Positions 13,911 through 44,543 of a DNA stretch of 64,000 nucleotides are shown here, piece by piece. The stretch comes from Rhodospirillales bacterium (GTDB lineage Bacteria > Pseudomonadota > Alphaproteobacteria > Rhodospirillales > UBA2165). A program made the translations under genes and the position numbers. Under the pieces are notes generated by a model. The model did no database searches. It had not been told where the DNA came from and saw nothing but the letters and a program-made list of their open reading frames with translations. The stretch is taken from positions 13,044 through 77,043 of the forward strand of contig JAOMCN010000002.1 in NCBI GenBank assembly GCA_028345065.1. Direction: 5' to 3'. Within the stretch, counting starts at the first letter, position 1; the number at the start of each line of letters is the position of its first letter.

Positions 13911-13935
13911 CCGGAGAAAATAAAAATGAACAACC

Positions 13936-14487
13936 CTACGCCGGAACCACTCCCAACTTCTCATCCCTCTGCCTTATCCACCAAATCACCGGTAATGCGA
14001 TCAAGATCATCCAGGCTTTTCCAATAATCTGGCCACTCAAGTAATCCAAGCTCCCAAATGCCAACTGCAAAAATAGTACACTATCGACGATCAATCCGAC
14101 GATGCCACTCAGGAATACCGCAAGAATAAGTCGTTTCTCCTGGAGTGGTGTATACACGGCAAAGTCAGCTAACTCAGATAACAGGAAAGCCGTACCTGAA
14201 GCTATTACCAATGCAGGGGGGGCAACAAATGCTGACAGAATAGCGCCTGCGATAATAGCACCTAGAGCCCAAACTTTACCCAGACGTCGTTGCACCAAAT
14301 CTCTCAATACAAGGGCCAAACCAATCATAAGGACGCCGCTCGGCGCCATGATATCGAAGCCGACAGGTATCAGGCAGGGACTATTGGGCGGACATACGGC
14401 CCCAAAATTACCTATCATCCAATTTGCGGCAGGAATTGTCAGTATAAATGCGACAAGATATCCGTAACCTTCATTGCGAGCAGTCAC
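13936..14487 (-). CDS. VUT family (YhhQ-like) queuosine-precursor transporter
   Basis: AANW, GLALVLRDLVQ, IASGTAFLLSELADFAVYTPL, VDSVLFLQLAFGS, GQIIGK; multi-TM; adjacent to the dpd/queC cluster. Confidence 0.8.
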   Translation of the reverse strand: MTARNEGYGYLVAFILTIPAANWMIGNFGAVCPPNSPCLIPVGFDIMAPSGVLMIGLALVLRDLVQRRLGKVWALGAIIAGAILSAFVAPPALVIASGTAFLLSELADFAVYTPLQEKRLILAVFLSGIVGLIVDSVLFLQLAFGSLDYLSGQIIGKAWMILIALPVIWWIRQRDEKLGVVPA

Positions 14488-14584
14488 TGAAACCTCCGTA
14501 ATTTCCCATCGTAGAATTAGCTACCCCAATAACCCGATTCGTTCATTTTGAAAACAGTTATTACCGCCATAAGTCAAAATTAAA

Positions 14585-14604
14585 TGTGGATAAACTGTGG
14601 ATAA
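14585..14604. promoter_or_regulatory. Two tandem consensus DnaA boxes
   Basis: TGTGGATAA-ac-TGTGGATAA (reverse complement TTATCCACA twice) in the divergent VUT/dpd intergenic region. Confidence 0.65.
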
Positions 14605-14695
14605 TTAAAACCATCAGAATACGTAATAACTGTAGAAAAACTGACCTATTCTGCTAAAATAGAAACCACTAATAACTGTTTGTTTGTCGATCCTC

Positions 14696-15628
14696 ATGAC
14701 GCTCATTTTAACTTCATGCACCAACCGAAAGCGGTATCAACCGGAACCCTATTTAGATACCTTAAACTTACCGCGTGGAACCTTGGAAAAAACGGCTTCT
14801 AATTGGGTATCTCGACGAAATAAAGCAAACTCACACTACGAAGCGGGATCTCTCTATGTCGGCAGACCTATGAAGGACGCCCGGAATGCCGCCCAACAAA
14901 TCAACACCTCCCTCTACATTATTTCTGCAGGACTGGGCCTGATATCCATCTTGGATACAATTCCCTCGTACAATTTGACTGTCCAAAGCAAGTCACAGGG
15001 ATCAATTCAGAAAAAAATTATTGAACCAATAAGACCAATGGATTGGTGGAGCGCGTTGAATACTACCCTGGACAAGAAAAACCCTATAGCCGGTCTCGTC
15101 AAAATTCACAAAAGGGAACTTACCCTCATCGCGTGCCCCGAAGTTTACGCCCAGATGATTTTGGATGATGTTTTAACTTTAAACGATGAAGATATTAGCA
15201 CCATTCGAATTTTCGGACCGAGAACTCCTGATAACTTCCCCGTCCGTTTTAGAAACCTAATCATGCCGTACGATGAGCGTTTCGACGGTCCTGACAGTCC
15301 GCTACCCGGTACACGGACAGATTACCCCCAGAGGGTACTCTTTCATTTTGTAAAGGACATACTCCCAGGTAGTTCTTCCATGGATGACATTACGGTCCAC
15401 CGAGAAAGTATTAAAGAACGGATGGAAACCATGAGACGTCCAGCATTAATCAGGCGTACACCGTTAAATGACGAACAGATTATAAACCTCATAAGAAATT
15501 GCTGGGAAACAGCTGAAGGTAAATCAAGCAAAATGCTCCGCGTTTTAAGAGACAGGGAAAAAGTTGCCTGCGAGCAGGGTCGCTTTGCCAATTTATTCAA
15601 GCTAGCCAAGGAAAGATACAGTCTATGA
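14696..15628 (+). CDS. DpdC-like / YaaA-DUF6884-like accessory protein of the Dpd modification module
   Basis: N-terminal ILTSCTNRK, LYxG, YIISAGLGL, IPSYNLT resemble the YaaA/DUF328-like fold; first gene of the dpdA operon (track start 14684). Confidence 0.55.
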   Translation: MTLILTSCTNRKRYQPEPYLDTLNLPRGTLEKTASNWVSRRNKANSHYEAGSLYVGRPMKDARNAAQQINTSLYIISAGLGLISILDTIPSYNLTVQSKSQGSIQKKIIEPIRPMDWWSALNTTLDKKNPIAGLVKIHKRELTLIACPEVYAQMILDDVLTLNDEDISTIRIFGPRTPDNFPVRFRNLIMPYDERFDGPDSPLPGTRTDYPQRVLFHFVKDILPGSSSMDDITVHRESIKERMETMRRPALIRRTPLNDEQIINLIRNCWETAEGKSSKMLRVLRDREKVACEQGRFANLFKLAKERYSL

Positions 15629-16755
15629 ACTTGTTCAGTGACCAAGATCGTCTTGTCATACGTGCTTTAAAAACAGAACAAATGAAAGATATCGATACCT
15701 ACGCTTTCTTCGTACCGGGTTCCCAGATCGTGGAAATTGCAGATATCAGTCGCGTCGCCCGCGATAAGAGCGATAAGTTAAAAGGTTTCCAGCGCAAGGA
15801 AATAAAAAACCACGTAAAATCCATTGTTGATTATCTAGATCAGGGGAACATCTTATTCCCTAATGCAATTATTTTAGCTCTCGGTCGAGAGGTCGAATTT
15901 AAACAATCCCGCGGTCCCGCGCCCGAAGGACTAACCAACGTTGCAAGTATGGGGACCCTCCACATCCCGAGGAGAATGGAAGGTGAGCGCGTAGCCTGGA
16001 TTGTCGATGGACAGCAGAGATCCATGGCATTGTCAAAAGCCAAAAACTCTCAGATCCCCGTGCCGGTGGTTGCATTCGTCGCCTCCGACCTGGAAACACA
16101 GCGCTCGCAATTTATTCTAGTAAACAAGGCTCGCCCCCTCCCGAGCGCCCTCATCAATGAACTGCTGCCAGAAGTGAACACACTCCTTCCCAGTGACCTA
16201 ACGGTAAAAATTATTCCCGCTGAATTAACAAACCTCCTAAATAAAGACCCGAATTCTCCATTCCACAAACTCATTATCAGGCCCTCCGATGACAATCGTG
16301 ATCCGGTGATCACTCAATCGGCACTGATTGAAGCCTTTAAGCAAAATCTCCGCCCTCCCCTCGGTGCCCTAAACCAGTTCAAGGGACTAGGAAATGCACC
16401 CTCAGATATGGATGGAATGTACAAGTCCATAATCGTCTACTGGTCTAAAGTTAAAGAAACATTTCCCGAAGCCTGGGGGATCCCCTCCACAAAAAGCCGA
16501 CTGATGCACTCCGCTGGAATTCGCGTCATGGGCGAGTTGATGGACCAGGTGATGCTCCGGGCGGATGGTTCCGTAGACCCCGTCGGAGAGATCAAAAAAT
16601 CATTGGATCGAATTAAACCGCACTGCAGATGGACAGAAGGTACCTGGGAAGAACTTGGCTGGAATTGGAATGACGTCCAAAGTATAGGTCCCCACATAGG
16701 ACGGTTATCCAATTATCTGCTTCAGATTGACCGACAAGGTTCGAGGCAGCATTAA
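15625..16755 (+). CDS. DGQHR-domain (ParB/DndB-like) protein, DpdB paralogue 1
   Basis: GFQR, LFPNAIIL, WIVDGQQRS, QFILVN, SRLMHSAG. Confidence 0.85.
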   Translation: MNLFSDQDRLVIRALKTEQMKDIDTYAFFVPGSQIVEIADISRVARDKSDKLKGFQRKEIKNHVKSIVDYLDQGNILFPNAIILALGREVEFKQSRGPAPEGLTNVASMGTLHIPRRMEGERVAWIVDGQQRSMALSKAKNSQIPVPVVAFVASDLETQRSQFILVNKARPLPSALINELLPEVNTLLPSDLTVKIIPAELTNLLNKDPNSPFHKLIIRPSDDNRDPVITQSALIEAFKQNLRPPLGALNQFKGLGNAPSDMDGMYKSIIVYWSKVKETFPEAWGIPSTKSRLMHSAGIRVMGELMDQVMLRADGSVDPVGEIKKSLDRIKPHCRWTEGTWEELGWNWNDVQSIGPHIGRLSNYLLQIDRQGSRQH

Positions 16756-18125
16756 TGAAATTTTTATACGCCGATGGCTTGGATTTTGTTGATCCAAATT
16801 ACAATTTTTTGGAGGATAGGTCACAACCGGGAAGGGAGCCTTACTGGGATGATGAATTCATGCACGAGCATCTCGAGGAACCGCCGTTTGACGGGTATCT
16901 TGTTTCAAGAAGTATCGTTTTAGGTCATTATATAGAAAATAATTCATTCCCAGCCAAATATACGATGGGGCAGAGTCAAAGATTACTGCGGAAAGGCGTT
17001 AGAAAATTTCTCCGTATAGACAACCCAAAATATGATGACCTCATGATCATGGGTGATTGCGGCGCCTACAGCTATCATAAACTTGAGAAACCGCCCTATA
17101 GCCCAAAAACATTATTAGAATTCTATAGCGACGGTGGTTTTACCCATGGCTGTTCCGTCGACCACATTATTTTTCAGTTTGATCGAAACCTCAGTGGGAT
17201 GGAAGCTTTCAGGGACACGAAAGACCCAGACGCAGGAATTAAAATCAAAGACCGTTGGGACATTACACAGGAAAATGCCGAAGTCTTCCTGAGAGAGAGC
17301 AAACAAATGACAACACCATTTATCCCCCTAGGAGTGATCCAGGGATGGTCACCCGGAAGCATGGCAAAGGCAGCCCATAATTTAGTGGCCATGGGATATG
17401 ACTATTTAGCTTTGGGAGGCATGGCCGTTTCTGCGGTGGACACGATACAGGTCGCACTTGAAGAAATTCGCAAACAGATACCTGACTATATAAAATTACA
17501 TCTTTTAGGGTTCGGAAAAGTTGATCAAATTGATGATATTATGGACTATAATGTCACCAGTATAGATACAACCTCCCCCATGCTTCGTGCATTTAAAGAC
17601 GTTCAAAGAAGTTTTTTCATGCCTGGTGATGACAGTGGACTTAAATATTACGCCAGTGTTCGGATTCCCCAGGCGACTGAAAATGCGGGGCTCAAACTTT
17701 TAGTAAAGAAAGGTGTTTTTTCTCAGGAATACCTCATTCAGCAGGAGAAAGGTGCCCTCACCGCTTTAAGGAACTATGACCAAGGTAAGGTTGATATGGG
17801 GACTGTATTGGGAGCGGTTATGGCATATACGAAAAGTGTCCAAACGAACCCAAAGACGGGAGCACCGCCAACCAAATCGAAGATGTCTGGTATTAAAAAC
17901 CTCTACACTGAACTTCTGAATGATCGTCCCTGGAGTGCCTGCGACTGTGCGGTTTGCAGGAAGGCTTCTATTGAAGTGGCTATATTCAGAGCCAGTAATC
18001 GCAATAAAAGACGCGGTATGCATAATACTTGGGTCTTCAATAACCGTCTCAAGCAATTCAATCAAAAGGGAGGCATTAATGGATCAGCAGATGAAATTTT
18101 CAGCGATCAGAGCAAAGCAAAGTAA
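16755..18125 (+). CDS. dpdA: DpdA DNA-guanine transglycosylase (TGT-like, inserts 7-deazaguanine into DNA)
   Basis: MKFLYADGLDFVDPNY...PYWDD; MGDCGAYSY; SVDHII; GVIQGWSP; ALGGM; HLLGF; SIDTTSP; Zn site CDCAVC...H; NKRRGMHN. Confidence 0.88.
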   Translation: MKFLYADGLDFVDPNYNFLEDRSQPGREPYWDDEFMHEHLEEPPFDGYLVSRSIVLGHYIENNSFPAKYTMGQSQRLLRKGVRKFLRIDNPKYDDLMIMGDCGAYSYHKLEKPPYSPKTLLEFYSDGGFTHGCSVDHIIFQFDRNLSGMEAFRDTKDPDAGIKIKDRWDITQENAEVFLRESKQMTTPFIPLGVIQGWSPGSMAKAAHNLVAMGYDYLALGGMAVSAVDTIQVALEEIRKQIPDYIKLHLLGFGKVDQIDDIMDYNVTSIDTTSPMLRAFKDVQRSFFMPGDDSGLKYYASVRIPQATENAGLKLLVKKGVFSQEYLIQQEKGALTALRNYDQGKVDMGTVLGAVMAYTKSVQTNPKTGAPPTKSKMSGIKNLYTELLNDRPWSACDCAVCRKASIEVAIFRASNRNKRRGMHNTWVFNNRLKQFNQKGGINGSADEIFSDQSKAK

Positions 18126-19161
18126 AGACCATTCAGTTGTTTCTTTTCCCGCAAGAGCATCGGAAATCCTGGAAATCGCTTCGATTGATCGTATTTCACG
18201 CGATCAAGATGGAAAAATCAAAGGATTTCAGAGACCTCAAATTGCCCTCCATATCAATGAAATAAGGGATTACCTATCGCAAGATGATGCCGTCCTGCCA
18301 AATCCTATTGTCCTGGCCTTCACGGAGGCGGTTGAAGTTACCGAAATAGATGGCAAACTTGTCGAATTTACCATTGATATTTCCAAGGGAGCACCAGGTT
18401 TAGTCGTCGACGGACAACAGAGACTTACGGCCTTAAGCGGCATTCCAGGAAAAGACTTTGAGGTATTTGTTTCTGCACTGATTTGCAAAGACGAAGAAGA
18501 ACTCAGAAAACAATTTATCCTCATTAACAACACCAAACCCCTACCAAAGTCTTTGATTTATGAATTGCTTCCCGAGGTCGGTGGTCTGCCTGAAAGGCTT
18601 TCGTCAAGATCGCTGGCTGCTAAACTCATTGAAATGCTCAATTACCAGGAGGGGTCTGCACTTAAGGGGCAGATCAACCAACATACCAATCCAGATGGTG
18701 TATTGGGCGATTACTCCATTCAAAAGTTAATCATGAATTCTTTGAGCGACGGTGCCTGCCGTGAAATGATGTCTGACGACGATGGCATGGAGAAGTGTTT
18801 ATCCCTCGTTAGTGAATTCTTTTTTGCAGTCCAACAGACATTTCCTGAAGCTTGGCATGATCATACCGTGAAGACATCCCGCCTTCTCCACGGAGCTGGT
18901 TTGATTTCCATGGGATATGTAATGGAGTTTTTGTATTTTAGGGATAACGCCAAAACAAGAGGGGACTTTCTGAACGGACTTAAACCTTTTGAGGGGCGTC
19001 TTCCATGGACCAAAGGCGAATGGGTATTTGAAGAAAATGAAACCCGTCCCTGGAATAGCATACAAAATCTAAACCGCGATATTCAGTTACTGGCGTCATA
19101 CTTAACAAGGGAACTCAAAAGGCACTCAAACCAAAAAATAGTCCCACTCCAGACAGCTTAA
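18079..19161 (+). CDS. dpdB: DGQHR-domain protein DpdB (paralogue 2)
   Basis: GFQRPQI, LPNPIVLAF, VVDGQQRL, QFILINNTKPLPKSLIYELLP, SRLLHGAG. ATG at 18079 follows GGGAGG and overlaps the dpdA end. Confidence 0.82.
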   Translation: MDQQMKFSAIRAKQSKDHSVVSFPARASEILEIASIDRISRDQDGKIKGFQRPQIALHINEIRDYLSQDDAVLPNPIVLAFTEAVEVTEIDGKLVEFTIDISKGAPGLVVDGQQRLTALSGIPGKDFEVFVSALICKDEEELRKQFILINNTKPLPKSLIYELLPEVGGLPERLSSRSLAAKLIEMLNYQEGSALKGQINQHTNPDGVLGDYSIQKLIMNSLSDGACREMMSDDDGMEKCLSLVSEFFFAVQQTFPEAWHDHTVKTSRLLHGAGLISMGYVMEFLYFRDNAKTRGDFLNGLKPFEGRLPWTKGEWVFEENETRPWNSIQNLNRDIQLLASYLTRELKRHSNQKIVPLQTA

Positions 19162-19170
19162 TGGCTATTC

Positions 19171-19881
19171 ATGACTAGCGATTTTGAAAACTCAGCGTTG
19201 GTCCTGTTTTCAGGAGGGCAAGACTCAACCACGTGCCTTGCCTGGGCATTAGATAGATATAAGAGAGTGGAAACAGTTGGCTTCGACTACGGACAGAGGC
19301 ATGCAGTTGAATTGGACTGCCGTACAACCATACGCAGCAATATTGCCCCCCTAAAGGAGGAGTGGAAAGATCGCCTAGGAGAAGATCACGTCCTCGACAT
19401 CAAGGTCCTAGGTGAGATAGGCGAGACGGCAATGACGCGAGACGTGGAAATCACTTATGAAGAAACGGGATTACCCAATACCTTTGTTCCAGGACGAAAT
19501 TTAATTTTTTTCAATTTCGCTGCCGCCCTCGCCTATCGCCGTGGCATCAAACATCTCGTAGGTGGAATGTGCGAAACAGATTACTCAGGGTATCCCGACT
19601 GCAGAGATGATACCTTGAAGTCACTGCAGGCGACCTTGAACCTAGGAATGGAAATGAGGTTCGTCGTCCATACCCCACTAATGTGGATTGATAAGGCTGA
19701 AACCTGGAAGATGGCAGAAGAGTTGGGCGGTGGTCCCTTAATCAGTTTAATTATAGAGGAAACTCACACCTGTTATATCGGTGACCGTAAAACCAAATCC
19801 GAATGGGGGTATGGATGCGGAGACTGTCCCGCATGTCAGCTCAGAAAAAATGGGTGGAATGCCTGGAATAATTCCAGCTAA
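19171..19881 (+). CDS. queC: 7-cyano-7-deazaguanine (preQ0) synthase
   Basis: [36 protein letters not shown]...[11 protein letters not shown]. Confidence 0.95.
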
Positions 19882-20028
19882 TAATTGTCGCAAGAATGGC
19901 TAAATCTCGAATAAGATTTGAATACAACTTACACAATTAATTACTCTCCTCTTGTATTCCTATATCTAATTGATTTAAATAGAAAAAATACACGGCAAAA
20001 CCAATTAAATTTCTCTGGGGAGGGAACT

Positions 20029-23000
20029 TTGAGTTGGCCGTATGTCACATCAAGCGACGACCACGCCAAAGATCTTGGTGTTGGGAAGCTTGTTGCCATT
20101 GATGACGTAAAAGCAGTCATTCATTATTTTCACAATCCCGCCGAGACCTCAATTGAAAGAGAAGTGCTGTCGCCAAGCGTTCAACCAGCGGAAATCTTGA
20201 GGCAAACCAGGGCATATTATGACGATCCCCAGAGAGGGTGGCGCGTTGGAAGAGTGATGTCCGCCGATAGACCGGCAAACAGGGTATTTGTTCGCTTCCC
20301 AGGTAGGGTTGAGGAGGATCTGAGTACCGACGATGTTTATGTTCGTTGGAACAAACCGGTTGACGACCCCTCTCATTATCTAGCCGAACTCCTCACTGAA
20401 ACCAGCCGTTTCTCAGTAGCTAGGCATGATTTTATGGCCTCACTTAATCGCCAAAGAACAGCGTGTAGAGGAATGTCCGCCTTAATTTCATCCCAAATTG
20501 AGTTACTGGATCATCAAATCAATGTCATAGAAAAAGTCCTTCAGGATCCGGTACAGCGATACCTGCTAGCCGATGAAGTCGGTCTCGGGAAAACAATTGA
20601 AACTGGGGTTATCATCCGACAAAGGGTCATCGATAATCCTAAAAACCATAAAATATTAATTTTAACGCCCCCACAATTAACTCTCCAGTGGCAATTAGAA
20701 CTCAAAGAAAAGTTTAATTTAACCAGTCAATTGGGGGAAGGTTCCGTTATCATCATTCCGTTTGATAACCCGGAGCAACTCAAACACCATATGGTTGGCG
20801 CTGATATGATCGTAGTGGATGAAGCCCATCATATTGGAACTAATGTTGAGTTACATAAAACACTGCTTAAGAATGTAAAAAGTATTCCCAGCATTATTCT
20901 TCTAACAGCTACCCCTGTCCTAAATAATGAGGAAAAATACCTCCAAATACTTAATTTACTCGATCCCGTTGTTTATTCATTAGATAAAAAAAATGAGTTC
21001 ACGACAAAAATAAAAAACCGGGATGAACTGGCAAGAACTGTAGCGCAATTATTGCCGATTAATTGCCTTATTCTGGACGATTACCTCAATAAATTAAAAA
21101 AAATGTTTCCATCTGATGGCATCTTGTCCGAAACTTGCGCCGCATTAGAAAAAACACTCAAAACAGTTACCGACGAAACCGATCCTGTTTTCTTAGATCA
21201 GTTAGCAGTTCTCAAGGCCCATGTTTCTGAGACTTATCGCCTCGACAGACGAATTCTAAGAAATCGACGACAAAGTGTGGAAGGATTAACTCCTGAACGA
21301 GATGGTGTGGAATTTATAGACTACTCTTCCTCCGACAACGCTCACATCTTTCAACAAATAAATACCTGGCGTACAGAATGTATGAGCGAATTCTATGGAC
21401 GGGATGATAGCCCGGAATACCAAGGTCTAAGAAAAACTTTCGCTGAGATTGTTGATGCAACTCTGACTTCCAGAGAAAAACTATTAACTGTTATTGCTGG
21501 TAGGGAAAGTTCCAATACCCCAGGAACCGTAGATTTATTATTTGAAGCAGAATGGGCAGCTAAAACGATGTCCTACCTGACCAACAATCTCATAGACGAA
21601 GAAAAATGTGATCAGTTACTCCGTTTAGTAGAACAATTAAGAAAAACGCAGAAGATCGTGATATTTTGCAGCGACCGAAAAACAGCCAGGCATATCTCGA
21701 AGTATCTTGATGAGAATACCGATTACGAAATTTGTGAACACATTGACGATACTGATCATAATTCTCCGAACTGGCGACAGTTTCTTGAGAGCGACGATCA
21801 CCCCGTCCTCGTTTGCAGCCAAGTTGCCGAAGAAGGTCTAAATCTGCAAGGTGGTGAAAAATGCGTTATCCACTTTGACCTTCCTATCAACCCGAACCGA
21901 ATTGAACAGCGTATTGGTCGCCTGGACAGATTTGGAACTGGACAAAAAATTAAATCATACGTCTTAAGATGTGAGGACAGCCCCCTGGAAGGTGCTTGGA
22001 GTGAAGTATTAGATGCAGGTTTATCCGTTTTTGATCAATCGATAGCAAGTTTGCAGTATGTCATTGAAGAACAGTTAACCCAAACCCGGGAAAGCCTCCT
22101 GGAAGAGGGGGAAGAGGCCTTTCAGCAACTAACTGAAAAGTTATCCGGAGATGATGGAATTGTTGCCCAGGAACTGGATAAAATTAAAAATCAAGAGATT
22201 TTAGATAGTCTCGAAGAGATTAATGAAGATCGTTATGATGGATTATATGATGTAGACGCTAAAGGACGGGGAATTCAAGCTGCGGTGCAGGGATGGTCCT
22301 GTAAAATCCTTCAGCTAAAAAAGTTCTTTGATGACCCAACCATTGAAGTCTTCAATTACCCTCCTTATTTCAATGATATAAATTTGGACGCGCACCAGAG
22401 GGAAGTACGCCAGATTATAGCTAAATGGCTAAGGGAAAATCCCCAAGAAAGCATTTGGGATCAGACCAAAGCAACTCCCGTTCCTATTGGAAACCAACCA
22501 GATCGGCTTAAGATATTGGAAGATCAGACAATGGATCTTCTATACAGCGAGGCCATTATTCCAGAAAGCCAGAACAATAAGTCCGACCCCAGGGACATAG
22601 ACGACCTTATGGAGTTCTTGAGGTTCAGGCTCAGTCCACTGGTTCTCCAGTTTGCGGGGTCCAAAATTGCACTTGAGGAAACCCATCGATTTAAATACGA
22701 CCCCCTTACATCATTGATTCCCGCCGACAGATTTATTATGGAAATTAGTACGTCAGTAATCCATTCAAATCACCGCCGGGCGGGAAAAGGTTACATGACA
22801 TTTCCATATACGTCGAAACGTCTTACAGCCGTTTCACGAAAACAACCTGATATACGCGTTTTGCGGTATGGAGAAGAATTTATATCAGGTATTATGAAAA
22901 TCACCGAGAGCGAAGACAGAGGAAAGAGTACGGCACTTTGGAGAAGAGTAAACAACTACTCCCCAGACAATGGAACTGCCGATTTATTTTTTCGATGCAG

Positions 23001-23844: not shown

Positions 23845-23845
23845 T

Positions 23846-27348: not shown

Positions 27349-27354
27349 TCGAGT

Positions 27355-30402: not shown

Positions 30403-30407
30403 AGATC

Positions 30408-34100: not shown

Positions 34101-35718
34101 CAACGCGGATATAAGGCGGCCTAAAGAGGAGGATTTTAGAACACGGATAAATTTCGTTCGGGATGGCGTTCCTGCCGCATTGGGAATGTCGATGACGGTA
34201 GATGCCCTCCGTATTAAGATCCCATCTTCATTTAATTTTTTAGACAATCTCAACCTCACCGAAGCGGCAATTCGAGGGTTGAGGACCGCACGATACTTAT
34301 CTGAGGCAAAGACAGGAGAAACTTTATCAGCGGTAGCAAACCCGTTCCTCAAGGAATGGCTGGCTAACATTTATATGACGACTGTCATCCACCAAGCCAT
34401 TTTAACTTCAACAAACCTAGAAGTTGCCGCTGAAGAAGTCTTTAACGATGCATCTGAGTTATTGGTTACACAGGTGCTAAATACTGTTTTTCAATCTTAT
34501 CATGAAGTCGACCCAGATGCAGACGATGAAGCCGAACCGGAAAGAGACACATTACATGTTGAATTAAATCATCTTCTAACAACACCTGATATACGGCAAG
34601 ACTTACACAATCTAATTTCGCTCCTATGGACCGATATTGATGAGAGTTGGAATACGTGGCTCCGGGACAAGGTAAAGGTAACACTTGCAGGTGCCGTCTA
34701 CTATACTATCCAAACCCTCTGCCCCCAAATTGACATAGAAAATCTAACCACGGACATCTTCCCCGGACCAAGAGAAGTGGGGGATGTATTTGTCGAAGAA
34801 GATATCAATTATGAGATTTGGGTCAGTGAAACGTCACCAGGCGGTAATGGACTTATTCAAACCTTCAACCAGTCATTTAATGAGGAACCGGGCCTCTTTT
34901 TCAAATTACTTCATTCTACCTTAGAGGCTAATGAGTTTGAGGTTATTGACAGGCAAATGACACGATATTTGAATGAAAGCGAACCAACCGCTAGTTCATC
35001 ACTCTACGACAGTGTTGAAGAATATCGTTCAGCTGACAGCCTCGACCAACAAGAAGCTTCATTTACAGAAATTCGTCGTTCTCTAGTTGAAAATGGTTAC
35101 TCCATTTTTCACAGTTTTTTGTCTTCATTTTCAGCTCGGATCATGAGACCCGGATCAAGTGATGATAGTGATCATTTTTTTAGATTGGGAATTACCGAAT
35201 GGATCGAAGAGGAAGAACGTTTAGGTACGGAGATAGATGCCCGAATTTTCTCATACTACTGGAGCCAAACGGACGCAGCCGAGAATTTTATGGCCTCATT
35301 CGACACCCAGAATACAGGCACACATGATAGGAATTGGCTCTACAATGTAATTTATGGAGTGTTCTGGCCTCGGGGCAGATTGGTGAGAGAGAGTAGCCTT
35401 AAACTGTATAACGAATTTGTTGAGTTACCAGATCCTGAACGACTGCTCTTTGCCAATCTAAGTCGCGTAAATCCCAAGACTGTTCAATGCTCCAGTCAAG
35501 ACTGGTTAGAGGAAACAAAGCTTGTCTTGCAGGAAGAGGGAACCGTTATCGTCGAAAGCTCCGTGAAGGAACAAAAAGACCTGTCTAAAGCAATTAACCA
35601 GTTAGCTGTCGAACCAATAGAGGTGAGCTATCTGAAATCCTTCGCAAGGATTATAGAACTGGACCGATCTGAAGAAGTTATACGTGCTAGGTTTGAATTG
35701 CCGGAGATATTTTGGTGA
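31138..35718 (+). CDS. dpdJ: DpdJ, large DEAD/DEAH (Lhr-like) helicase
   Basis: LLVWG, RSRMAETVRL, AGTGSGKTLAFYLP, IYPRNELLKDQ, Cys cluster, LLDEVH, GLSATL, TSTLEVG, QRKGRAGR. Start uncertain (31111-31138). Confidence 0.82.
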   Translation: MIINNTDDILRLILDEIERRENSLLVWGVVDGSSSETEILAVISDIIDDNWKRVEEIDDRFTDTGFVLKKLTEKCLIFEIPFTDDQRQFRSRMAETVRLLFHLRQLFPLHDRVGGYNAANTLVADYRFKRVSRSYPKRDQTLSDFFEVLCAENPNIRAALEAQSERRPGIERFMLANFQVEATKAILDSIATKNDQGILISAGTGSGKTLAFYLPALSRISDLIQQEDNTDRWVKAVAIYPRNELLKDQFREVFTEARLLDDLLKAKNKRKIQIGALFGPTPNSSGGPKYKDDWIDDGAGYICPYINCIQCGGLMVWRHEDLRRNREVLCCQGDECDFEINEDEIILTRKRIAKSPPDILFTSTEMMNRHLSNKILRSAFGAFPHAQRAPEMMLLDEVHTYQSFTGAQIAFLLRRWRNALPNGSDVTFIGLSATLKDGEVFFAELCGLSADNVTEIKPRPSEMEKEGAEYTIALRGDPVSRAALLSTTIQTGMLLSRTLDERNSRVSDGIFGTKLFAFTDKLDVINRLEPDMLDAEGRDRDGTPLRKPPLAFLRQPQNDKTRYTNGQDWLMCRQIGHFLDNKKNISKTTSQDPGVNLEAEVIIATSTLEVGFNETNVGAVIQHKAPRGMASYVQRKGRAGRTRKMRPWTAIVLSDYGRDRLIYMAYEQLFDPELPANSLPIGNRYISRIQAVYCLIEYLSKEVGNIWSGRPIRKWLSQPYEPDNREETLKKERLFHKKLREILTNILEDTVVFDDFSSYLGKSLQLQNDEIQAILWDHPRPLITAVIPTALRRLATNWKNENGDEDHYLRDAPLPEFATQTLFNDLNLPEVILKMPEQQLGDDETMALSQAMREFAPGRISKRFAATGRANLKHWVCPEDLTENECLLEFTNPYELSELGRWSLVERSDVVSLPVFRLLSIQLKQADPDYGDTSNARLNWHTQIIARERGTPLAPPVGVPLEQLIEDIQIFTHEDQNPVEIRRFSDHSNADIRRPKEEDFRTRINFVRDGVPAALGMSMTVDALRIKIPSSFNFLDNLNLTEAAIRGLRTARYLSEAKTGETLSAVANPFLKEWLANIYMTTVIHQAILTSTNLEVAAEEVFNDASELLVTQVLNTVFQSYHEVDPDADDEAEPERDTLHVELNHLLTTPDIRQDLHNLISLLWTDIDESWNTWLRDKVKVTLAGAVYYTIQTLCPQIDIENLTTDIFPGPREVGDVFVEEDINYEIWVSETSPGGNGLIQTFNQSFNEEPGLFFKLLHSTLEANEFEVIDRQMTRYLNESEPTASSSLYDSVEEYRSADSLDQQEASFTEIRRSLVENGYSIFHSFLSSFSARIMRPGSSDDSDHFFRLGITEWIEEEERLGTEIDARIFSYYWSQTDAAENFMASFDTQNTGTHDRNWLYNVIYGVFWPRGRLVRESSLKLYNEFVELPDPERLLFANLSRVNPKTVQCSSQDWLEETKLVLQEEGTVIVESSVKEQKDLSKAINQLAVEPIEVSYLKSFARIIELDRSEEVIRARFELPEIFW

Positions 35719-36275
35719 CAGAACTTAGACGCATATTCCAAACCAAAACAACGAGCCAAGGAGAAATCCGGGATCTCCTGCAGATGATATTTGCCAATGA
35801 ACTGCTAACACCGAGTGAGGAGTTGTGGTTGGTAAGTCCCTGGATCAGCGATATCCCAATTCTGGATAACCGTATGGGGGGGTTTGATGCAATTAACCCC
35901 GAGTGGAAAGGAAGGGAAATTCGGTTAACGGAAGTTCTTCTCCAATTGATGTCCGTTGGTAGTAAAGCATTTATCGTTACCATTAGCCCAACTGACGTGG
36001 ACACAAATCGTTATTTTGTTAATAGGCTATCTTCTCTTTCTGAGGAAACCGGTCTAACCAACAAGAAAATAATTATTGAGGTGCCAAAACCTGAAGATTT
36101 TACTGGTCTTCATTATAAGGGAATACTGACAGCCAGAGGTTTTCTCGAAGGTTCAATGAATATCAGTCATAACGGATTAAAGCTGAACGACGAACAGGTT
36201 ACTTATGACATTAATAGGGAAAGAATTACAGACGCTCGGGTTCACTTTGAGGAAACCCACGGGGAAGGTTCCTAA
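35712..36275 (+). CDS. dpdK: DpdK, phospholipase-D-family nuclease
   Basis: LWLVSPWISDIPILDNR; HYKGIL...GSMNIS..G...NDE (single HxK motif). Confidence 0.82.
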   Translation: MVTELRRIFQTKTTSQGEIRDLLQMIFANELLTPSEELWLVSPWISDIPILDNRMGGFDAINPEWKGREIRLTEVLLQLMSVGSKAFIVTISPTDVDTNRYFVNRLSSLSEETGLTNKKIIIEVPKPEDFTGLHYKGILTARGFLEGSMNISHNGLKLNDEQVTYDINRERITDARVHFEETHGEGS

Positions 36276-36278
36276 TTA

Positions 36279-38525
36279 ATGAACAACCCAAATAAAATTG
36301 AAGAAGGTCTGGTAGAGTTTTTATCATCTCCCAATGAAATTTCTCTTCACGATCTCGAACAGAGAGAATTTCTTTACCCGTGGTGTGAGGAGGTTGCGGA
36401 GTGGTGGGAATTAGGAAAAACAACAAACTGGAACGCACCGATTATCCTCCCCCTCAAACTTTCTGAGGAAAACACAATCTGGTTTGCCAGTGCCCTCGAT
36501 TCAAGAATAGCCAATCAGTTAGGCATCGAGTTACTGGCGCACGTCGGTCCCTCCTTCTCTGATTTTAATGGAAATATTTGGGAAAAAGATAGCCAAACAT
36601 CATCCGATAAGAATTTTTTTCATAGTCTCGAGCACAATGTCTACCGATTTACAACGTCTTCACCGGACAGTGACGAAAAGATAGCGAAATACCTGCGACT
36701 TTTTAGGGGTTCCGTTCAGAAAAGACCACCAAGTCAAAAGATCGTCTCTACGTCCAGCCAATTGATGCGGTCGGAATTTGATAAGGCATTGATGCTAGGT
36801 GATGGGGTCCAAGCACTTTTCTTAAAGAATGAACTTTTGAAGACGGGTCGCTTAAGTGCGGAAAATCAAATCTATTTAGAAGTTCGCTATCTGGCTGGGT
36901 TAAGCAAGTCGCCGGATTTAATAACGAACGAAAAGTTACTAAATAAATTAACAGACCGTAAGCTGCCAAAGCAAATCCTTCTCGATCTAATGACTTCCTA
37001 TCACGCTGTTTTTGTTGAGGAAATCGAAGACGGAGAAAAGCCTGAAAAAAAAATTGAAGAATTCAGAACATCAACACGATCTTTTGGCACATTTTTTAGA
37101 ACACGCAGGGGTCTAAAAGATTCCAAGCTGTTAAAAACATTTCTCCTGTATGAAGTTTGCCATAGAGAAATCAAGGATGATGATTTCGAAAAACTTGCCA
37201 GTGAAGTTACTGATGGCGATAAGTTTATCCAAGCTTTAAGGGACTTTCTCTCCCCGCCATCCGTCACTCCCGTGGTTGTAGATAGCGATCCAGACATAGT
37301 TCCGGATCAACTGGAGAGAGCGAATGCCGCCTTTCTAGCAATGGATTGGGATTTAGCTTTTTCTTTGTTCCTGCAATTGGAACCAACCAAGGATACTGTC
37401 AATAAAGCCCTTACATGTGCGGAACTGCTTAAAAACACAGAAGCGAACGCAGAAGTTTGTCGTTTTATTGAAAGTTCCAATATAAATTTGAAAACGGAAC
37501 TGGCACCCAATCCAAAAGAATTTTACCTAAAAATCTCCTCGAAAATTAATAACCCAGTTAAGGGAGTTGCGGGTTGGTTAGAATGGCTTGAATTAATTTC
37601 GATTGAAAAAGACATGGAGGAAGTTGAAAAATTACTGGAACATGAGAGCGGAACTTGGTCCATCAAACCACTCTGCTCTGATGATAGCGCCAACGCATTA
37701 ATCGATGCTCACGAGGTTCGCAGAGACCTCATTGAAAAAGCAATAATAACAATTGTAACGCAATTGCAAGAGGAGGAAGAGAACCAAAGTACAATTGCAA
37801 AACCTTTAATAGACACCATGCTAATCATAAATTTGACAAAAGACGCTCACTCCGCCTCCGACCTGGAAATTATTAATCAATTAACTCAATTATTTTTAAC
37901 GACAGGTCTTAGCGCCGAAGAATACCTAGAATTAATCAAAGAGTTGAACCAGCTATTCGATGATAATTCCTCCTACAATAACCTTTCATGGGCCCTAGAT
38001 TTACTCGATATTTTGGCAACTCATCCATGTCCCAGTGATGAGGCTCGTCTGCGTTTGTTCAGTTCTGTCATTGAATTTTCAAGTCGACAAATTCATCGCT
38101 TAAATTTTGCACACTATAAAACCCTGCAATTTCTGAGTTCAGACTATAGCACACCATTACCTAAAGCATTCGATCAAGTGGCAAATCAAACTGGCGATGA
38201 AGAGGTACGTAACTATGACAATATTAAGATTGGCATTTACACTCTAATAGAACAAGCAGGGCAAAGGGCGGCCGATTTACTCAAGGAATTGTACCCAAAT
38301 ATTTCTGTTAATACGAACAACGATCACGCCTGCACAGATAGGCTCCGAGCAATCGCAAGAAATTCAGATATTTTTGTTTTTTGCGCGAGGGTTAGTACCC
38401 ATCAGGCTTACTACTGCGTAAAAGATCACAGACCAACTGAAAATTTGTTCCTTCAACCGCCTGGCAGAGGCAGAACAAGTATAATCAATATCGTTGCAGA
38501 TAATATTGCAAAGGTTTTAAATTAA
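36279..38525 (+). CDS. dpdD: DpdD
   Basis: LSAEN..YLEV; C-terminal IGIYTL.E.A..RA...NNDHACTDRL..IAR..DIFVF....STHQA; last canonical dpd gene. Confidence 0.72.
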   Translation: MNNPNKIEEGLVEFLSSPNEISLHDLEQREFLYPWCEEVAEWWELGKTTNWNAPIILPLKLSEENTIWFASALDSRIANQLGIELLAHVGPSFSDFNGNIWEKDSQTSSDKNFFHSLEHNVYRFTTSSPDSDEKIAKYLRLFRGSVQKRPPSQKIVSTSSQLMRSEFDKALMLGDGVQALFLKNELLKTGRLSAENQIYLEVRYLAGLSKSPDLITNEKLLNKLTDRKLPKQILLDLMTSYHAVFVEEIEDGEKPEKKIEEFRTSTRSFGTFFRTRRGLKDSKLLKTFLLYEVCHREIKDDDFEKLASEVTDGDKFIQALRDFLSPPSVTPVVVDSDPDIVPDQLERANAAFLAMDWDLAFSLFLQLEPTKDTVNKALTCAELLKNTEANAEVCRFIESSNINLKTELAPNPKEFYLKISSKINNPVKGVAGWLEWLELISIEKDMEEVEKLLEHESGTWSIKPLCSDDSANALIDAHEVRRDLIEKAIITIVTQLQEEEENQSTIAKPLIDTMLIINLTKDAHSASDLEIINQLTQLFLTTGLSAEEYLELIKELNQLFDDNSSYNNLSWALDLLDILATHPCPSDEARLRLFSSVIEFSSRQIHRLNFAHYKTLQFLSSDYSTPLPKAFDQVANQTGDEEVRNYDNIKIGIYTLIEQAGQRAADLLKELYPNISVNTNNDHACTDRLRAIARNSDIFVFCARVSTHQAYYCVKDHRPTENLFLQPPGRGRTSIINIVADNIAKVLN

Positions 38526-38528
38526 TAC

Positions 38529-40214
38529 ATGGCAATTTCTGTTGATACTTCTGGTGGCTGGATGCCGGAGAAAAGTTTACTGGACTCCCAACAAGTGGCT
38601 ATCCTGGATAATCTAATTCGGTGGGCTGAGGAATCCAAAATGCCTGATGACGCCAAATCTCAGACACACTGGATACAAGGTTTTGCCGGATCCGGAAAAA
38701 CTATTTTGCTCATCTATGCCATGCTGCAAACAATAAGGCTTCAACCCGACGCTAAAATCTGTTTTGTGACTTACACCTCAGCCTTAAAGGACTTGGTCCT
38801 TTCTGCCCTGAAACCTGATGGTGATGAAGCTGTAGAAATCATCAGATTCGATCAAATGGCAGAAGCCATCAAATCACAAAATAGGTTTGATTACGTCTTC
38901 GTCGATGAAGTGCAGGATATAAAAAAATCTCACCTAAAATTATTAATAAGGAGTACCAATAGACTTGTTATAGCCGGTGACCCGGACCAAAGTATTTATC
39001 AAAACAGGGTGTCCGAAAAAGAGTTACAAGAAGCACTTAAGGTTCCAGACGATTGCCTTTATGAACTGTCTATACTCTACCGACTGCCCCCGAAGGTTGT
39101 AGCGATTGCCAACACTATACTTCCCGAAACTAAAATGATTTTTGCAGAAAATGGTCGACGAGGAGAACCAGGAACAGCTATCACAACGCATTACACAAAT
39201 AAACAGAAGGAGGCCGAAACCGTCTATAAATACGCAGACGAGTTATCAACTCCCAAGAAGCCTTCTCTAATTCTATTGCCATCACACGGTGGTATTTATG
39301 ACTTTGCTAAATTAGTCTGCAAGTCCAGAGATCTCCCACCCCCACCAGAATCCGTATACAGGGGAATGCGCGATTATTCGGAATTCAACCAAAGTTTGAA
39401 GGATAACGGCCTAAATTTAATGTATTTTGGAAATGATAACGGTGACTTAAATGTCTCGAAAGTTCATGGACAAACTTACATAATGACATACCACAGTGCC
39501 AAGGGTCTCGATTTTCCTCAAGTTTTCCTGCCAGGATTGAACGTCGACCTTACCATTTGGAGGGACAACGAAATAATATCCAAGAGGTTATTTTTTGTAG
39601 GTATTACCAGAACCTCAAAGGATCTCTACATGTCATTTAATTCACATGAACCTCACCGTTACTTAAATGAAGTAGAAAAGTTAACTGGTGGTATGATTGA
39701 ATTTGAAGGAACCTCTGAACCAGAAAAAGCGACGCAAGCCTCCCCTAACCCGGTGGAAGCGCTTATTGGGGAAGTGGTCGAAGATGCAATTTCTGACAAG
39801 ATAGTGGAAGAACTCAAGGACGCAATTGCTGACGAGATAGCAGAAGGACTCGTCAATGGCATTGATGACGATGAAGAGAAGAAAGGGGAAGATGAAATAC
39901 CCTCCTCAACTGGCATAGTTGAACCTACTTCCTCCCCTGAACCGGTAAAAACGAAGGAGGCCCCCCCTGAACCAGTGAAAAAGAAGCAGGCGTCAACTTC
40001 TAAACCAGCGAAAAAGAAGCAAGCGTCACCTTTTAAACCCGTGAAAAAGAAACAGGCGTCTACTTCTAAACCCGTGAAAAAGAAACAGGCGTCTACTTCT
40101 AAACCTGTGAAAAAGAAACAGGCGTCTACTTCTAAACCCGTGGAAACGAAACAGGCTTCCCCTGAACCAGTGAAAAAGAAGCAGGCTTGGTGGAAACGAC
40201 TTTTCGGAGACTAG
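38529..40214 (+). CDS. UvrD-like SF1 helicase with acidic and Lys-rich low-complexity tail
   Basis: GFAGSGKT, VFVDEVQD, AGDPDQSIY, TYHSAKGLDF, FFVGITR; 3 nt after the dpdD stop. Confidence 0.85.
   Translation: MAISVDTSGGWMPEKSLLDSQQVAILDNLIRWAEESKMPDDAKSQTHWIQGFAGSGKTILLIYAMLQTIRLQPDAKICFVTYTSALKDLVLSALKPDGDEAVEIIRFDQMAEAIKSQNRFDYVFVDEVQDIKKSHLKLLIRSTNRLVIAGDPDQSIYQNRVSEKELQEALKVPDDCLYELSILYRLPPKVVAIANTILPETKMIFAENGRRGEPGTAITTHYTNKQKEAETVYKYADELSTPKKPSLILLPSHGGIYDFAKLVCKSRDLPPPPESVYRGMRDYSEFNQSLKDNGLNLMYFGNDNGDLNVSKVHGQTYIMTYHSAKGLDFPQVFLPGLNVDLTIWRDNEIISKRLFFVGITRTSKDLYMSFNSHEPHRYLNEVEKLTGGMIEFEGTSEPEKATQASPNPVEALIGEVVEDAISDKIVEELKDAIADEIAEGLVNGIDDDEEKKGEDEIPSSTGIVEPTSSPEPVKTKEAPPEPVKKKQASTSKPAKKKQASPFKPVKKKQASTSKPVKKKQASTSKPVKKKQASTSKPVETKQASPEPVKKKQAWWKRLFGD
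39936..40187 (+). repeat. 30/33-bp tandem repeats encoding KPVKKKQASTS-like units (~8 copies)
   Basis: aaacccgtgaaaaagaaacaggcgtctacttct near-identical at 40035, 40068 and 40101, with degenerate flanking copies. Confidence 0.9.
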
Positions 40215-40344
40215 TCGGGGGATTTGGAGAAATATTAAGGGGAATAAATAACTGAAATTATTGAGTAACAACTTAAATAAGGCATGAACTACGATAGGAA
40301 CTAACAAAGCCGAGTAAAATTAATAAGATTTATAATTCTAGGTT

Positions 40345-41568
40345 ATGGATATGAAAAAAGGCTTTTACTCCTGTATATCGATCACTGTTTCTGAATGGCA
40401 AACTTGGCAGTTATTTCGGGAACTAAGAACCTCCGCAAATCGCTGGGTAGAAATTCAAATCGATGAACAAGGTAATATAAGTGACGACAGGGCAATTATA
40501 GAATTGTTTAACCGAGGCCCAGACCTAACCCCTGATTTTGAGCAAGATATTCTTATTGTTGTTGCTAAAGTTTTTGATGATCAGATGCAGGAGCGACTAA
40601 CTCATGATACAAACGACATCTACTATTGTGGTATTGATTTAGTAGATTCTGTATTTGCGGTCACGGAACGCAATACTAAACTACTCGAGGTTCGGGGAAT
40701 AAATTTACAAAAACCCTTGTTTGAACAACAGTGGTTAAAGTTCCGTTCCAACGATGATATAAGCAGATCATTAAAAAATGGAAACTACTTTGATATCATC
40801 GAACAGAATGAAGACAATACTAAATCAGTTGGCATTGGAGATCCGGTAAAAGACCAAGTAGCCAATGCTTTGGGGTTTCGATTTTATCCAGATATATCAG
40901 ATAACAATTGGACGCCATCTGCCTTAACTGAGTTATTTAGTTTTCAAAGAAAACTACCCATCTCCGGAGGGGACGACCCCACCCCTACTCACACTGATCT
41001 TGACTACTGTATTGACCTTGGCCTTCTAGCAAGACGACGTTTAGATAAGAAACTCACCAAAAGCTTTCTCGAATATGGTGGATATATTAATTATAAAACT
41101 GTCGATGACTTAGTAGCTTTTGTTTTGGATACAAACGTCGAAGCGATTTTCGATAAAATTCAAGAAGATGAACCGCTAGATTTTATAGTGCGTCCCGAGG
41201 CGCATTTGTTATTTTTGAAGTGGAAGGAAAAGTTTTTTGAAAACTCAAAGATCGAATGGGAAGGTCTAAGAAGCGACGTAAAACGTCTTATCGAAGGCGA
41301 CAAAAACGTGATTTCCCAACAAGCCCTCTTCTTACTCACGTGTTATGGTGGTCCAGCCGCCTTATCAAACCTCCCCAAAGACTTTAAAAAAGAAGTTGGA
41401 CTGGAGACTTCTCCCCCTTTCTCAGAAATTATCGATCCTGTAACACCTTTCCAACTCACTTGGGGCCAAGTTTTCATCGAAAAAAACCAGGATCTACTCG
41501 GGAAAATAACCATATACTTTGCATATGCCGTATTACTTTTGCAGGTCGTTTTGATTTTATTTTTTTAA
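40345..41568 (+). CDS. Hypothetical protein with C-terminal TM anchor
   Basis: 407-aa ORF co-oriented with the dpd operon; ends ITIYFAYAVLLLQVVLILFF. Confidence 0.7.
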   Translation: MDMKKGFYSCISITVSEWQTWQLFRELRTSANRWVEIQIDEQGNISDDRAIIELFNRGPDLTPDFEQDILIVVAKVFDDQMQERLTHDTNDIYYCGIDLVDSVFAVTERNTKLLEVRGINLQKPLFEQQWLKFRSNDDISRSLKNGNYFDIIEQNEDNTKSVGIGDPVKDQVANALGFRFYPDISDNNWTPSALTELFSFQRKLPISGGDDPTPTHTDLDYCIDLGLLARRRLDKKLTKSFLEYGGYINYKTVDDLVAFVLDTNVEAIFDKIQEDEPLDFIVRPEAHLLFLKWKEKFFENSKIEWEGLRSDVKRLIEGDKNVISQQALFLLTCYGGPAALSNLPKDFKKEVGLETSPPFSEIIDPVTPFQLTWGQVFIEKNQDLLGKITIYFAYAVLLLQVVLILFF

Positions 41569-41699
41569 ACTCTCCGTATGCATTAATTACTACAATGACA
41601 TCTGCGAAAACAAATCTCTCTAATATGCTTTTTTGAGAGTATCCACGACCCTAGACATTTGCTGCGATACCTTCCCTTCCTTCATAAGAAGGTTATGCC

Positions 41700-42128: not shown

Positions 42129-42189
42129 TTATAAAACTCCTCTTTATGTATTAGAGACGTTACTTTTCTGGAAAACTAATTGGTTCCGG

Positions 42190-42564: not shown

Positions 42565-42600
42565 GCGAGCTTTCCTTTTACAAAAGTTGTGGGAAAATAA

Positions 42601-44535: not shown

Positions 44536-44543
44536 TTAATCTT

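Follow-up and report, generated by a model that had tools for sequence, protein, structure and literature searches.

The window analysed here is a 64,000-nucleotide stretch from a Rhodospirillales bacterium (assembly GCA_028345065.1, contig JAOMCN010000002.1). Its positions 13936-41568 very probably hold a complete and apparently intact Dpd restriction-modification island, in a widespread form with two copies of DpdB. A Dpd system tags its own DNA with 7-deazaguanine bases and attacks untagged DNA; it was reportedly defined first in a PNAS paper of 2016. Out of the ordinary in this island are only two rare genes added at its end and a lone gene for precursor synthesis. Gene identities, intactness, operon-like packing, conservation of catalytic residues and frequency of the layout were read directly from the DNA.

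The assembly amounts to 2.2 Mb on 116 contigs and is estimated to be 67% complete. Genes were called from a listing of open reading frames (ORFs) and with the profile libraries NCBIfam, Pfam and PADLOC, which were read against their curated cut-offs. The island starts with a VUT-family gene on the minus strand. It is followed by 15 co-oriented genes on the plus strand in the order dpdC, dpdB1, dpdA, dpdB2, queC, dpdE, dpdF, dpdG, dpdH, dpdI, dpdJ, dpdK, dpdD, X1 and X2 (Table 1). From dpdC through X1 adjoining ORFs overlap or are spaced by at most 36 nucleotides (nt), and a gap of 130 nt precedes X2. All eleven dpd families were matched, ten of them above the curated cut-offs, together with the second DpdB and QueC. 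According to the ORF listing and the profile matches, the 16 island genes are all free of stops and frameshifts. Every gene named in the original prediction, which had been made from the letters of the sequence, was found where it had been placed, and the proposed PADLOC run recognised DpdC (Table 1) and not DpdI. The region had also been described as AT-richer than its flanks. This is true, the difference being modest, with a guanine-plus-cytosine (GC) content of 0.433 in positions 13936-41568 versus 0.484 (1-13935) and 0.472 (41569-64000). Scans for promoters and terminators gave signals at background level only. Rfam returned zero matches across the whole window, hence no preQ1 riboswitch is present there.

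Table 1 Coordinates of the island genes and of further features in the window (aa, amino acids; bits, profile scores)
Feature	Position	Strand	Description	Profile match or remark
ARPP-1 protein	4153-5181			
PP2C phosphatase	6560-7279			adjoining the Ser/Thr kinase
Ser/Thr kinase	7276-8538		DUF5710	MkoA/PD-T4-6-like matches
RecD2-like helicase	8626-10887		N-terminal FYDLN_acid zinc ribbon	PADLOC typeIV_RecD, 240 bits
Sel1 + Schlafen AlbA_2 protein	12474-13910			
VUT	13936-14487	-	VUT/YhhQ-like membrane protein, 183 aa; predicted importer of 7-deazaguanine precursors	divergent from dpdC
dpdC	14684-15628	+	314 aa	PADLOC DpdC PDLC02815, 302.6 bits, residues 4-307
dpdB1	15625-16755	+	ParB/DndB-like DGQQR ATPase, 376 aa	NF041060, 431 bits (cut-off 300)
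dpdA	16755-18125	+	DNA-guanine transglycosylase, 456 aa (guanine to preQ0, by homology)	NF041059, 484.6 bits (cut-off 200)
dpdB2	18079-19161 (frame open from 17920)	+	downstream paralogue, 360 aa	NF041060, 379.5 bits
queC	19171-19881	+	7-cyano-7-deazaguanine synthase, 236 aa (CDG to ADG to preQ0)	TIGR00364, 213.8 bits (equivalog cut-off 150.3); Pfam QueC, 242.6 bits
dpdE	19918-23844	+	SNF2-type helicase, 1308 aa	NF041062, 854.7 bits; SNF2-rel_dom, Helicase_C
dpdF	23846-26452	+	RecQ-like DEAD/DEAH helicase, 868 aa	NF041063, 732.1 bits
dpdG	26452-27348	+	298 aa	NF041064, 223.9 bits
dpdH	27355-30402	+	AAA-type ATPase, 1015 aa	NF041065, 497.9 bits; AAA_22
dpdI-like	30408-31148	+	divergent, 246 aa	NF041066, 57.1 bits (cut-off 150), full length
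dpdJ	31111-35718	+	YprA-family helicase, 1535 aa	NF041067, 1626.6 bits
dpdK	35712-36275	+	small phospholipase-D-type nuclease, 187 aa	NF041068, 180.9 bits
dpdD	36279-38525	+	748 aa	NF041061, 451.6 bits
X1	38529-40214	+	minimal UvrD-like helicase core of superfamily 1 (about residues 1-390) with lysine-rich repeat tail, 561 aa	
33-nt tandem repeat	39970-40186	+	6.7 copies, encodes the KKKQASTSKPV tail of X1	Tandem Repeats Finder, score 287
X2	40345-41568	+	near-orphan, hydrophobic C-terminal end, 407 aa	three relatives in 5.8 billion proteins

For the modification arm the strongest comparison was available for DpdA. The protein aligned over residues 1-433 with the DpdA of Salmonella Montevideo (entry 7UI4 of the Protein Data Bank (PDB), E = 2.3e-73). 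The residues named in the structure paper were checked, with the numbering offset of 7UI4 fixed via the GDCGAF motif. The catalytic residues D95, D130 and D256 are matched by D101, D136 and D271 of the window, and L236, G206/G207 and F265 are retained. Two positions are changed. F99 is replaced by Y105, with F at that position in 79 of the 80 related loci defined below, and H181 by Q196, with Q in 80 of these 80 loci and H in two loci of enterobacterial type.

DpdC matched DUF6884 of Pfam marginally below the cut-off (29.1 versus 30 bits) and gave no match in the NCBIfam search. It is predicted to turn 7-cyano-7-deazaguanine (preQ0) already present in DNA into 7-amido-7-deazaguanine (ADG; dADG in DNA). 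This role is taken over from the S. Montevideo work (PMC10164549, as far as its accessible text goes). QueC contains SGGQDS and a C-terminal cysteine cluster, and its gene lies directly after dpdB2 without queE or queD beside it. The VUT protein reached 40.8 bits with Vut_1 of Pfam (cut-off 27.2) at profile positions 62-151 only, i.e. its C-terminal part, and 31 bits with TIGR00697, below the cut-off of 50.95. Its homologue on a Sinorhizobium plasmid is labelled 'VUT family protein' in the annotation. Outside the island, a YaaA-family (peroxide stress) protein encoded at 5325-6110 weakly matches the DpdC family DUF6884 (35.3 bits), which suggests that the YaaA and DUF6884 families are related to each other.

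In the restriction block DpdD, DpdE, DpdF, DpdG, DpdH, DpdJ and DpdK each scored above the NCBIfam cut-off. The assignment of DpdJ to the YprA family follows the available part of 10.1101/2025.09.15.676423. DpdK is the probable cutter of the system. The dpdI-like gene is placed between dpdH and dpdJ, the same slot as in an annotated Enterobacter island; PADLOC, Pfam and PHROG gave no match for its product. DpdE extends about 260 aa beyond its 1048-position profile and matches it in two stretches. Its relatives also align in two pieces, and the inserted region falls after about residue 815.

The frequency of the layout was examined with an alignment of DpdA from the window and from three genomes of the same phylum, which was scanned over GTDB with one genome per species. 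A DpdA relative is encoded by 290 stretches. The best 80 of them (45-67% identical), with flanks of 10 kb, are termed related loci, and their gene content was read by tblastn with the window proteins. DpdB1 was found upstream and DpdB2 downstream of dpdA in 73 of the 80 loci. Three of the seven exceptions (L058, L090, L096) are contigs of 2-3 kb ending on the relevant side. A damaged copy is carried by two of the 73: DpdB1 is in two pieces in L073, where another B1-type match lies 2 kb upstream of the broken copy, and DpdB2 is split in L064. queC (above 50% identity) was detected in 68 loci, in 11 of the 80 directly after dpdB2 as in the window. A VUT homologue is present in 27, mostly after queC and in two cases (L034, L062) upstream on the other strand. 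Downstream of the arm, 24 of the 80 loci show a co-oriented dpdE, 17 a convergent dpdD or dpdJ and 39 neither. The hosts are mostly Alphaproteobacteria, furthermore Methylococcaceae, Rhodocyclales, Comamonadaceae, Terriglobia and a Verrucomicrobiaceae assembly.

When 401 genomes were sampled evenly across the phylum of the window, four contained DpdB above the cut-off. A pair of copies separated by 2.4 kb occurs in the genome of the window and in G159; in G198 the copies are spread over several contigs, and G265 has a single copy. Among 26 plasmids with a DpdA match in RefSeq annotation, the best two, of Agrobacterium and Sinorhizobium, show 'DpdB (x2)'. A survey from 2025 reports 2335 unique dpd islands with dpdB as the gene most often multiplied (n = 801 extra copies), QueC in more than 20% of the islands and YhhQ in about 9% (PMC12235509, accessible portion). 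Genes for preQ0 and yhhQ had previously been seen inside dpd clusters (PMC5699537, likewise in the portion available). A literature search on the two-DpdB arrangement itself retrieved nothing relevant; Tables S8 and S9 of PMC12235509 may list the exact layout.

The island had been proposed as an expanded Dpd subtype. It does differ from the Salmonella model by the second DpdB, queC and VUT, but the layout is common and the gene order is largely documented already, given the 73 loci, the RefSeq annotation and PMC12235509. The genes had been seen correctly and their rarity over-rated. The layout with two DpdBs, queC and VUT is not exotic; it is standard in Alphaproteobacteria and several other groups.

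The families DpdA-K, with DpdI matched only weakly in the window, are common to the window and to the enterobacterial system, known from S. Montevideo and from nearly identical islands such as the one annotated on the Enterobacter cloacae plasmid pPOL9A (NZ_CP086409.1). The same DpdA fold family with its catalytic residues and the same order E-F-G-H-(I)-J-K-D are also shared. On pPOL9A the order is hypothetical-dpdA-dpdB, then convergent dpdD-K-J-(hypothetical)-H-G-F-E. The enterobacterial form has one DpdB after dpdA, a convergent restriction block and an island without queC or VUT. In contrast, the window contains two DpdBs, dpd genes on one strand, queC and VUT and two genes past dpdD, and its DpdA is about 34% identical to the enterobacterial one. 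On plasmid B of Sinorhizobium americanum CCGM7 (NZ_CP013053.1) the order is hypothetical (DpdC)-DpdB-DpdA-DpdB-queE-queD-queC-VUT. There and in Agrobacterium vitis CP146243.1 two DpdBs flank DpdA as in the window, with DpdA about 48% identical. In the Sinorhizobium locus VUT follows queC, and dpdD-K are absent within 12 kb, whereas in the window queC stands alone, VUT lies upstream on the other strand and the restriction block is full. The nearest relative found was L034 (Rhodospirillales, OZ243926.1) with the same order of VUT on the minus strand, dpdC, dpdB1, dpdA, dpdB2 and queC. The identities to the window are 80% for VUT, which is likewise upstream on the opposite strand, 48% for dpdC, 77% for dpdB1, 67% for dpdA, 73% for dpdB2 and 75% for queC. 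The L034 host is also without a QueD or QueE match. Its restriction genes (dpdH and dpdG were seen) are on the opposite strand, unlike those of the window, and the genome has no homologue of X1.

The only Dpd model studied biochemically has one DpdB, and the second copy is a widespread part of a large defence system. In the window dpdB1 shares 4 nt with dpdC and 1 nt with dpdA, and dpdB2 overlaps the end of dpdA by 47 nt. A start of dpdB2 at 17920 was rejected: orthologues have an upstream stop and begin at the same point as 18079, where GGGAGG lies 7 nt before the ATG as a strong ribosome-binding site. The NF041060 profile begins at residue 58 of the long ORF. DpdB1 contains IVDGQQRS and DpdB2 VVDGQQRL, and both contain GFQR. 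The two proteins are 34% identical to each other, versus 47-77% between each copy and its corresponding orthologues elsewhere. DGQQR is present in 77 of 79 upstream and 81 of 82 downstream aligned copies, the three misses being fragments, and GFQR is likewise kept. Neither copy looks like a dead paralogue.

A maximum-likelihood tree of DpdB was calculated by quick search with support from the Shimodaira-Hasegawa-like approximate likelihood ratio test (SH-aLRT). It comprised 63 of 168 rows from 36 sources picked for diversity and three DndB-like outgroups. All 27 upstream copies, including DpdB1 of the window, form one clade (support 99). The 28 downstream copies, including DpdB2 of the window, form with one copy of G198 a second clade (support 97). 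The same pairs of hosts cluster in both clades, as expected if both copies were inherited together. Judged from the tree, DpdB1 and DpdB2 are old paralogues.

A search for longer relatives of DpdB1 yielded 27 proteins. Fusions of an N-terminal DpdC with a C-terminal DpdB account for 23 of them (665-698 aa, domains DUF6884 and DndB). Their DpdB half scored 393-442 bits against DpdB1 versus 152-197 bits against DpdB2 and is 52-58% identical to DpdB1. One of these fusions, named from a Candidatus Accumulibacter assembly, is present on 12 contigs. Two further proteins are fusions of an N-terminal DpdA with a C-terminal DpdB, whose DpdB part scores alike to both copies; the remaining two are an odd three-part protein and a weak match. 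Because of the gene order and the natural fusions, a division of labour is suggested in which DpdB1 would work with DpdC and DpdB2 with DpdA. The DpdC-DpdB1 fusions supply a concrete hypothesis for the second DpdB.

Further DpdB-like genes were seen in some genomes. In L057 (at about 3456), L074 (about 6017) and L110 (about 14962) the dpdC-B1-A-B2 arm is accompanied, at a distance of a few kb, by a third DpdB-like gene that has diverged strongly. These genes show 24-25% identity to DpdB2; two are in the tree, on long branches. The window's assembly encodes a third DGQHR/DndB-like protein at C95:47065-47895 (L003; 457-aa frame, 56 bits to DpdB). Its score is far below the DpdB cut-off, and it probably belongs to another system as a DndB-type protein.

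Chemistry and restriction activity are assigned here by homology with the S. Montevideo system. In a first step preQ0 would be supplied by QueC, the VUT transporter or both. DpdA, aided by the ParB-like ATPase DpdB, would then insert preQ0 in place of guanines of the host DNA, where DpdC would hydrate its nitrile to yield dADG. Finally DpdD-K, comprising the helicases E, F and J, the ATPase H, the phospholipase-D-type nuclease K and others, would attack unmarked incoming DNA.

Several points weigh against reading the island as a complete two-DpdB system that works in this way. The proposed function is derived from one studied homologous system, whose DpdA is 34% identical, and DpdI lies far below its curated cut-off. 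The loci counted are the 80 most similar to this DpdA, so that the layout can be called common within its clade (45-67% identity) but not across Dpd systems in general, and even here a single DpdB is found in L035 and L085 (dpdC-dpdA-B2) and in L071 (dpdC-B1-dpdA), with none in view in L084. Concerning the division of labour, the DpdA-DpdB fusions (n = 2) favour neither copy. DpdB of S. Montevideo is a homodimer serving DpdA (PMC10164549, in the part available), yet in our tree the single enterobacterial DpdB is placed beside DpdB1 and not DpdB2, with a support of only 88 and on long branches. According to the same part of that paper, DpdC of S. Montevideo acts in vitro without DpdA or DpdB; hence the known mechanism needs no DpdB dedicated to DpdC. 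Finally, neither QueD nor QueE was found in the host (67% complete) as a source of the QueC substrate.

The two genes past dpdD were examined separately. X1 has the Pfam domains UvrD-helicase, UvrD_C and AAA_19 and begins 3 nt past the dpdD stop. Its best relatives in PDB are UvrD and Rep, in partial alignments, with GajB at E about 1e-3. Matches to GajB, Nhi and AbiO in PADLOC were weak and partial (68.7 bits at most). With Gabija GajB and UvrD-like defence helicases X1 shares the motor of UvrD type from superfamily 1 (SF1). Unlike helicases of UvrD/Rep size, it is without accessory subdomains and has a repeat tail of its own. An assignment of X1 to Gabija was rejected, given the weak partial matches and no GajA-like neighbour in Pfam and PADLOC. 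More than 1000 proteins of about 385 aa, most of them without a name, make up the wider family of X1; only five of them show 45-65% identity. X2 was without match in Pfam, NCBIfam, PADLOC and PHROG. Its AlphaFold2 model from a 4-row alignment was poor, with a mean predicted local distance difference test (pLDDT) score of 43.7. The ESM Atlas gave nothing usable for X2 (best feature score 0.77, template modelling (TM) score at most 0.28).

X1 and X2 recur beside dpdD on one other contig only, the metagenome contig L114. It encodes DpdH as well as DpdJ, DpdK, DpdD, X1 and X2 with 61, 59, 51, 49 and 67% identity to the window. X1 again lies directly after dpdD and X2 next; the X1 match covers the helicase part and stops at residue 397, the tail being unmatched. 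Further downstream the next two genes of the window follow at 94-95% protein identity. In blastn the DNA identity changes from about 65-73% over the Dpd genes to 91% from position 40847, inside X2. The 91% stretch (L114 10467-13517, window 40847-43873) covers the 3' two thirds of X2. The exchange joint between cassette and flank looks to fall inside X2 at about 40847. Two diverged Dpd alleles, each with X1, beside one flank fit an island that was swapped as a cassette between related strains.

X1 was absent beside Dpd from five genomes with related islands, where only weak matches in large housekeeping helicases occurred. A search of 300 other genomes of the order, at a threshold of E <= 1e-20, did not find it either. 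In the 80 related loci neither X1 nor X2 was matched, including loci that show DNA past dpdD. By this distribution the two genes are lineage-specific add-ons, and X1 is most likely transferred together with the restriction operon of this lineage. The two extra co-oriented genes had been counted to the proposed subtype; they are indeed present after dpdD but are not a part of the subtype at large.

It is quite possible, though less likely than not, that X1 and X2 lie at the island edge as cargo unrelated to Dpd or as a small independent defence module. This would be in line with the variable, defence-rich surroundings (kinase with PD-T4-6/MkoA-like matches, RecD-like helicase, Schlafen AlbA_2), the gap of 130 nt ahead of X2 and the GC content of X1/X2 (0.409), which is below that of the Dpd core (0.436). 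However, two diverged alleles show the same close coupling of X1 to dpdD, and known defence families match X1 poorly and X2 not at all. The coupling also speaks for another explanation, which we consider tentative and somewhat doubtful: X1, perhaps with X2, could be a working accessory of Dpd restriction, an extra SF1 motor with a basic tail holding the DNA, and the island a truly enlarged variant. Besides the start of X1 3 nt after the dpdD stop, X1 follows dpdD again in L114 with a divergence similar to that of DpdD (49% vs 51%), so it moved with the cassette, and X2 is next in both. On the other hand, X1 was seen at two loci only, given the negative searches above, and its repeat tail is not conserved in L114. 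The 3' two thirds of X2 are part of the 91% identical flank rather than of the cassette, and with more than 1000 members in one family and three relatives in the other the two genes are no fixed pair.

The lone queC is a small puzzle on the origin of 7-deazaguanine in such hosts. Most relatives have about 1 kb between dpdB2 and queC. In L037 this stretch encodes QueE (TIGR04508, 355 bits) and a QueD-like protein; the window is without both. In the window assembly the island queC is the sole strong QueC match, and a normal tgt is present. QueD (PF01242) was found neither there nor in the genome G406 of the same genus (89% complete). Five hosts with queC directly after dpdB2 were checked: G404, G405 (host of L034), G426, G427 and G428. 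In G405 (a 4.6-Mb assembly) and G427 QueD was not found, and the island QueC is the only strong QueC match. G426 has a QueD with two TGA stops on the contig of the island, within the range of L036, G428 has QueD-like frames near the island and G404 a queC-queD-queE group separate from it. Searches with a QueE protein, TIGR04322 and a QueD protein gave nothing in the window assembly, G405, G406 and G427, and the control in G404 was found. These queD and queE searches concern draft assemblies, where absence is no proof, and one QueE family model was used. Among 20 relatives QueD was present in three and a strong QueC in eight. G412, G417, G418, G419 and G421 combine a strong QueC match with no QueD (PF01242) match; a lone queC may be common in this order.

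From these searches queC would be an orphan gene for the last step beside a transporter, in genomes apparently lacking the means to make 7-carboxy-7-deazaguanine (CDG). The QueC reaction passes through ADG, according to the literature in the portions available. We infer that the pair of queC and VUT might serve the salvage or recycling of precursor. In this scheme 7-carboxy- or 7-amido-7-deazaguanine would be imported by the transporter or released when the cell breaks down its own DNA with dADG, and QueC would convert it to preQ0 for DpdA. We count for this salvage the identities between the window and L034, which are 75% for QueC versus 67% for DpdA and 48% for DpdC. No mention of such a role for an island queC and VUT was found in the accessible parts of the literature searched. 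It is rather unlikely that three proposals hold jointly, namely queC and VUT as a salvage branch, DpdB1 and DpdB2 as DNA-loading ATPases for DpdC and DpdA, respectively, and X1 as a new motor subunit of restriction.

As products dPreQ0 and dADG are expected, because QueC is canonical, the catalytic residues are kept and the array is without another tailoring enzyme. A different modification or motif had been suggested in the original prediction. The sequence gave no evidence for this: the catalytic Asp residues are kept, DpdC is full length and QueC canonical. That the island writes another 7-deazaguanine derivative than the Salmonella system, or targets another motif, is therefore improbable in our view. 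The two changed DpdA positions, H181 to Q196 and F99 to Y105, do contact the base, a second DpdB could alter the choice of site and the DpdA is only about 34% identical to the enterobacterial type. Nevertheless, the Asp triad and the Gly-rich loop of DpdA are retained. DpdC and the canonical QueC are the only base-tailoring genes, with no queF, Gat-QueC or other such gene in the 15-gene array by NCBIfam, Pfam and PADLOC. The sole hint of altered recognition is the change of H181 to Q, clade-wide at a base-contacting residue. Bacterial tRNA-guanine transglycosylase (TGT) has Gln at the equivalent position. Both dADG and dPreQ0 were reported for the DNA of Kineococcus radiotolerans (PMC12235509, part available).

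That the island is a decaying remnant which no longer works is hardly credible. Decay would fit the lack of queE and queD, which most relatives carry between dpdB2 and queC, and the strong divergence of DpdI. Against it, all 16 genes are without stop or frameshift, the checked motifs are all intact and queC likewise stands alone in 11 of the 80 loci.

The surroundings of the intact island were inspected on both sides. No tRNA, integrase or Rfam element was found at its ends. DNA searches with the flanks in the 20 relatives matched two housekeeping genes only; hence neither an empty site nor a left boundary could be defined. In the right flank (41700-48428) nine ORFs encode 138-449 aa each; eight of them lie on the minus strand, and Pfam, PADLOC and PHROG gave no match for them save a DUF2130 protein at 46425-47774. 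The left flank (4153-13910) is a run of candidate defence genes (Table 1), with a 217-aa protein of unassigned family and a Sel1-repeat protein in addition. Overall the flanks resemble a variable region rich in defence genes. A homologue of the Sel1/AlbA_2 protein, 37% identical, lies near the Dpd locus of L081. Outside the window, positions 1694-2527 of the same contig (C29 of the window assembly) show 68% DNA identity to positions 4214-5047 of the window, a part of the ARPP-1 gene.

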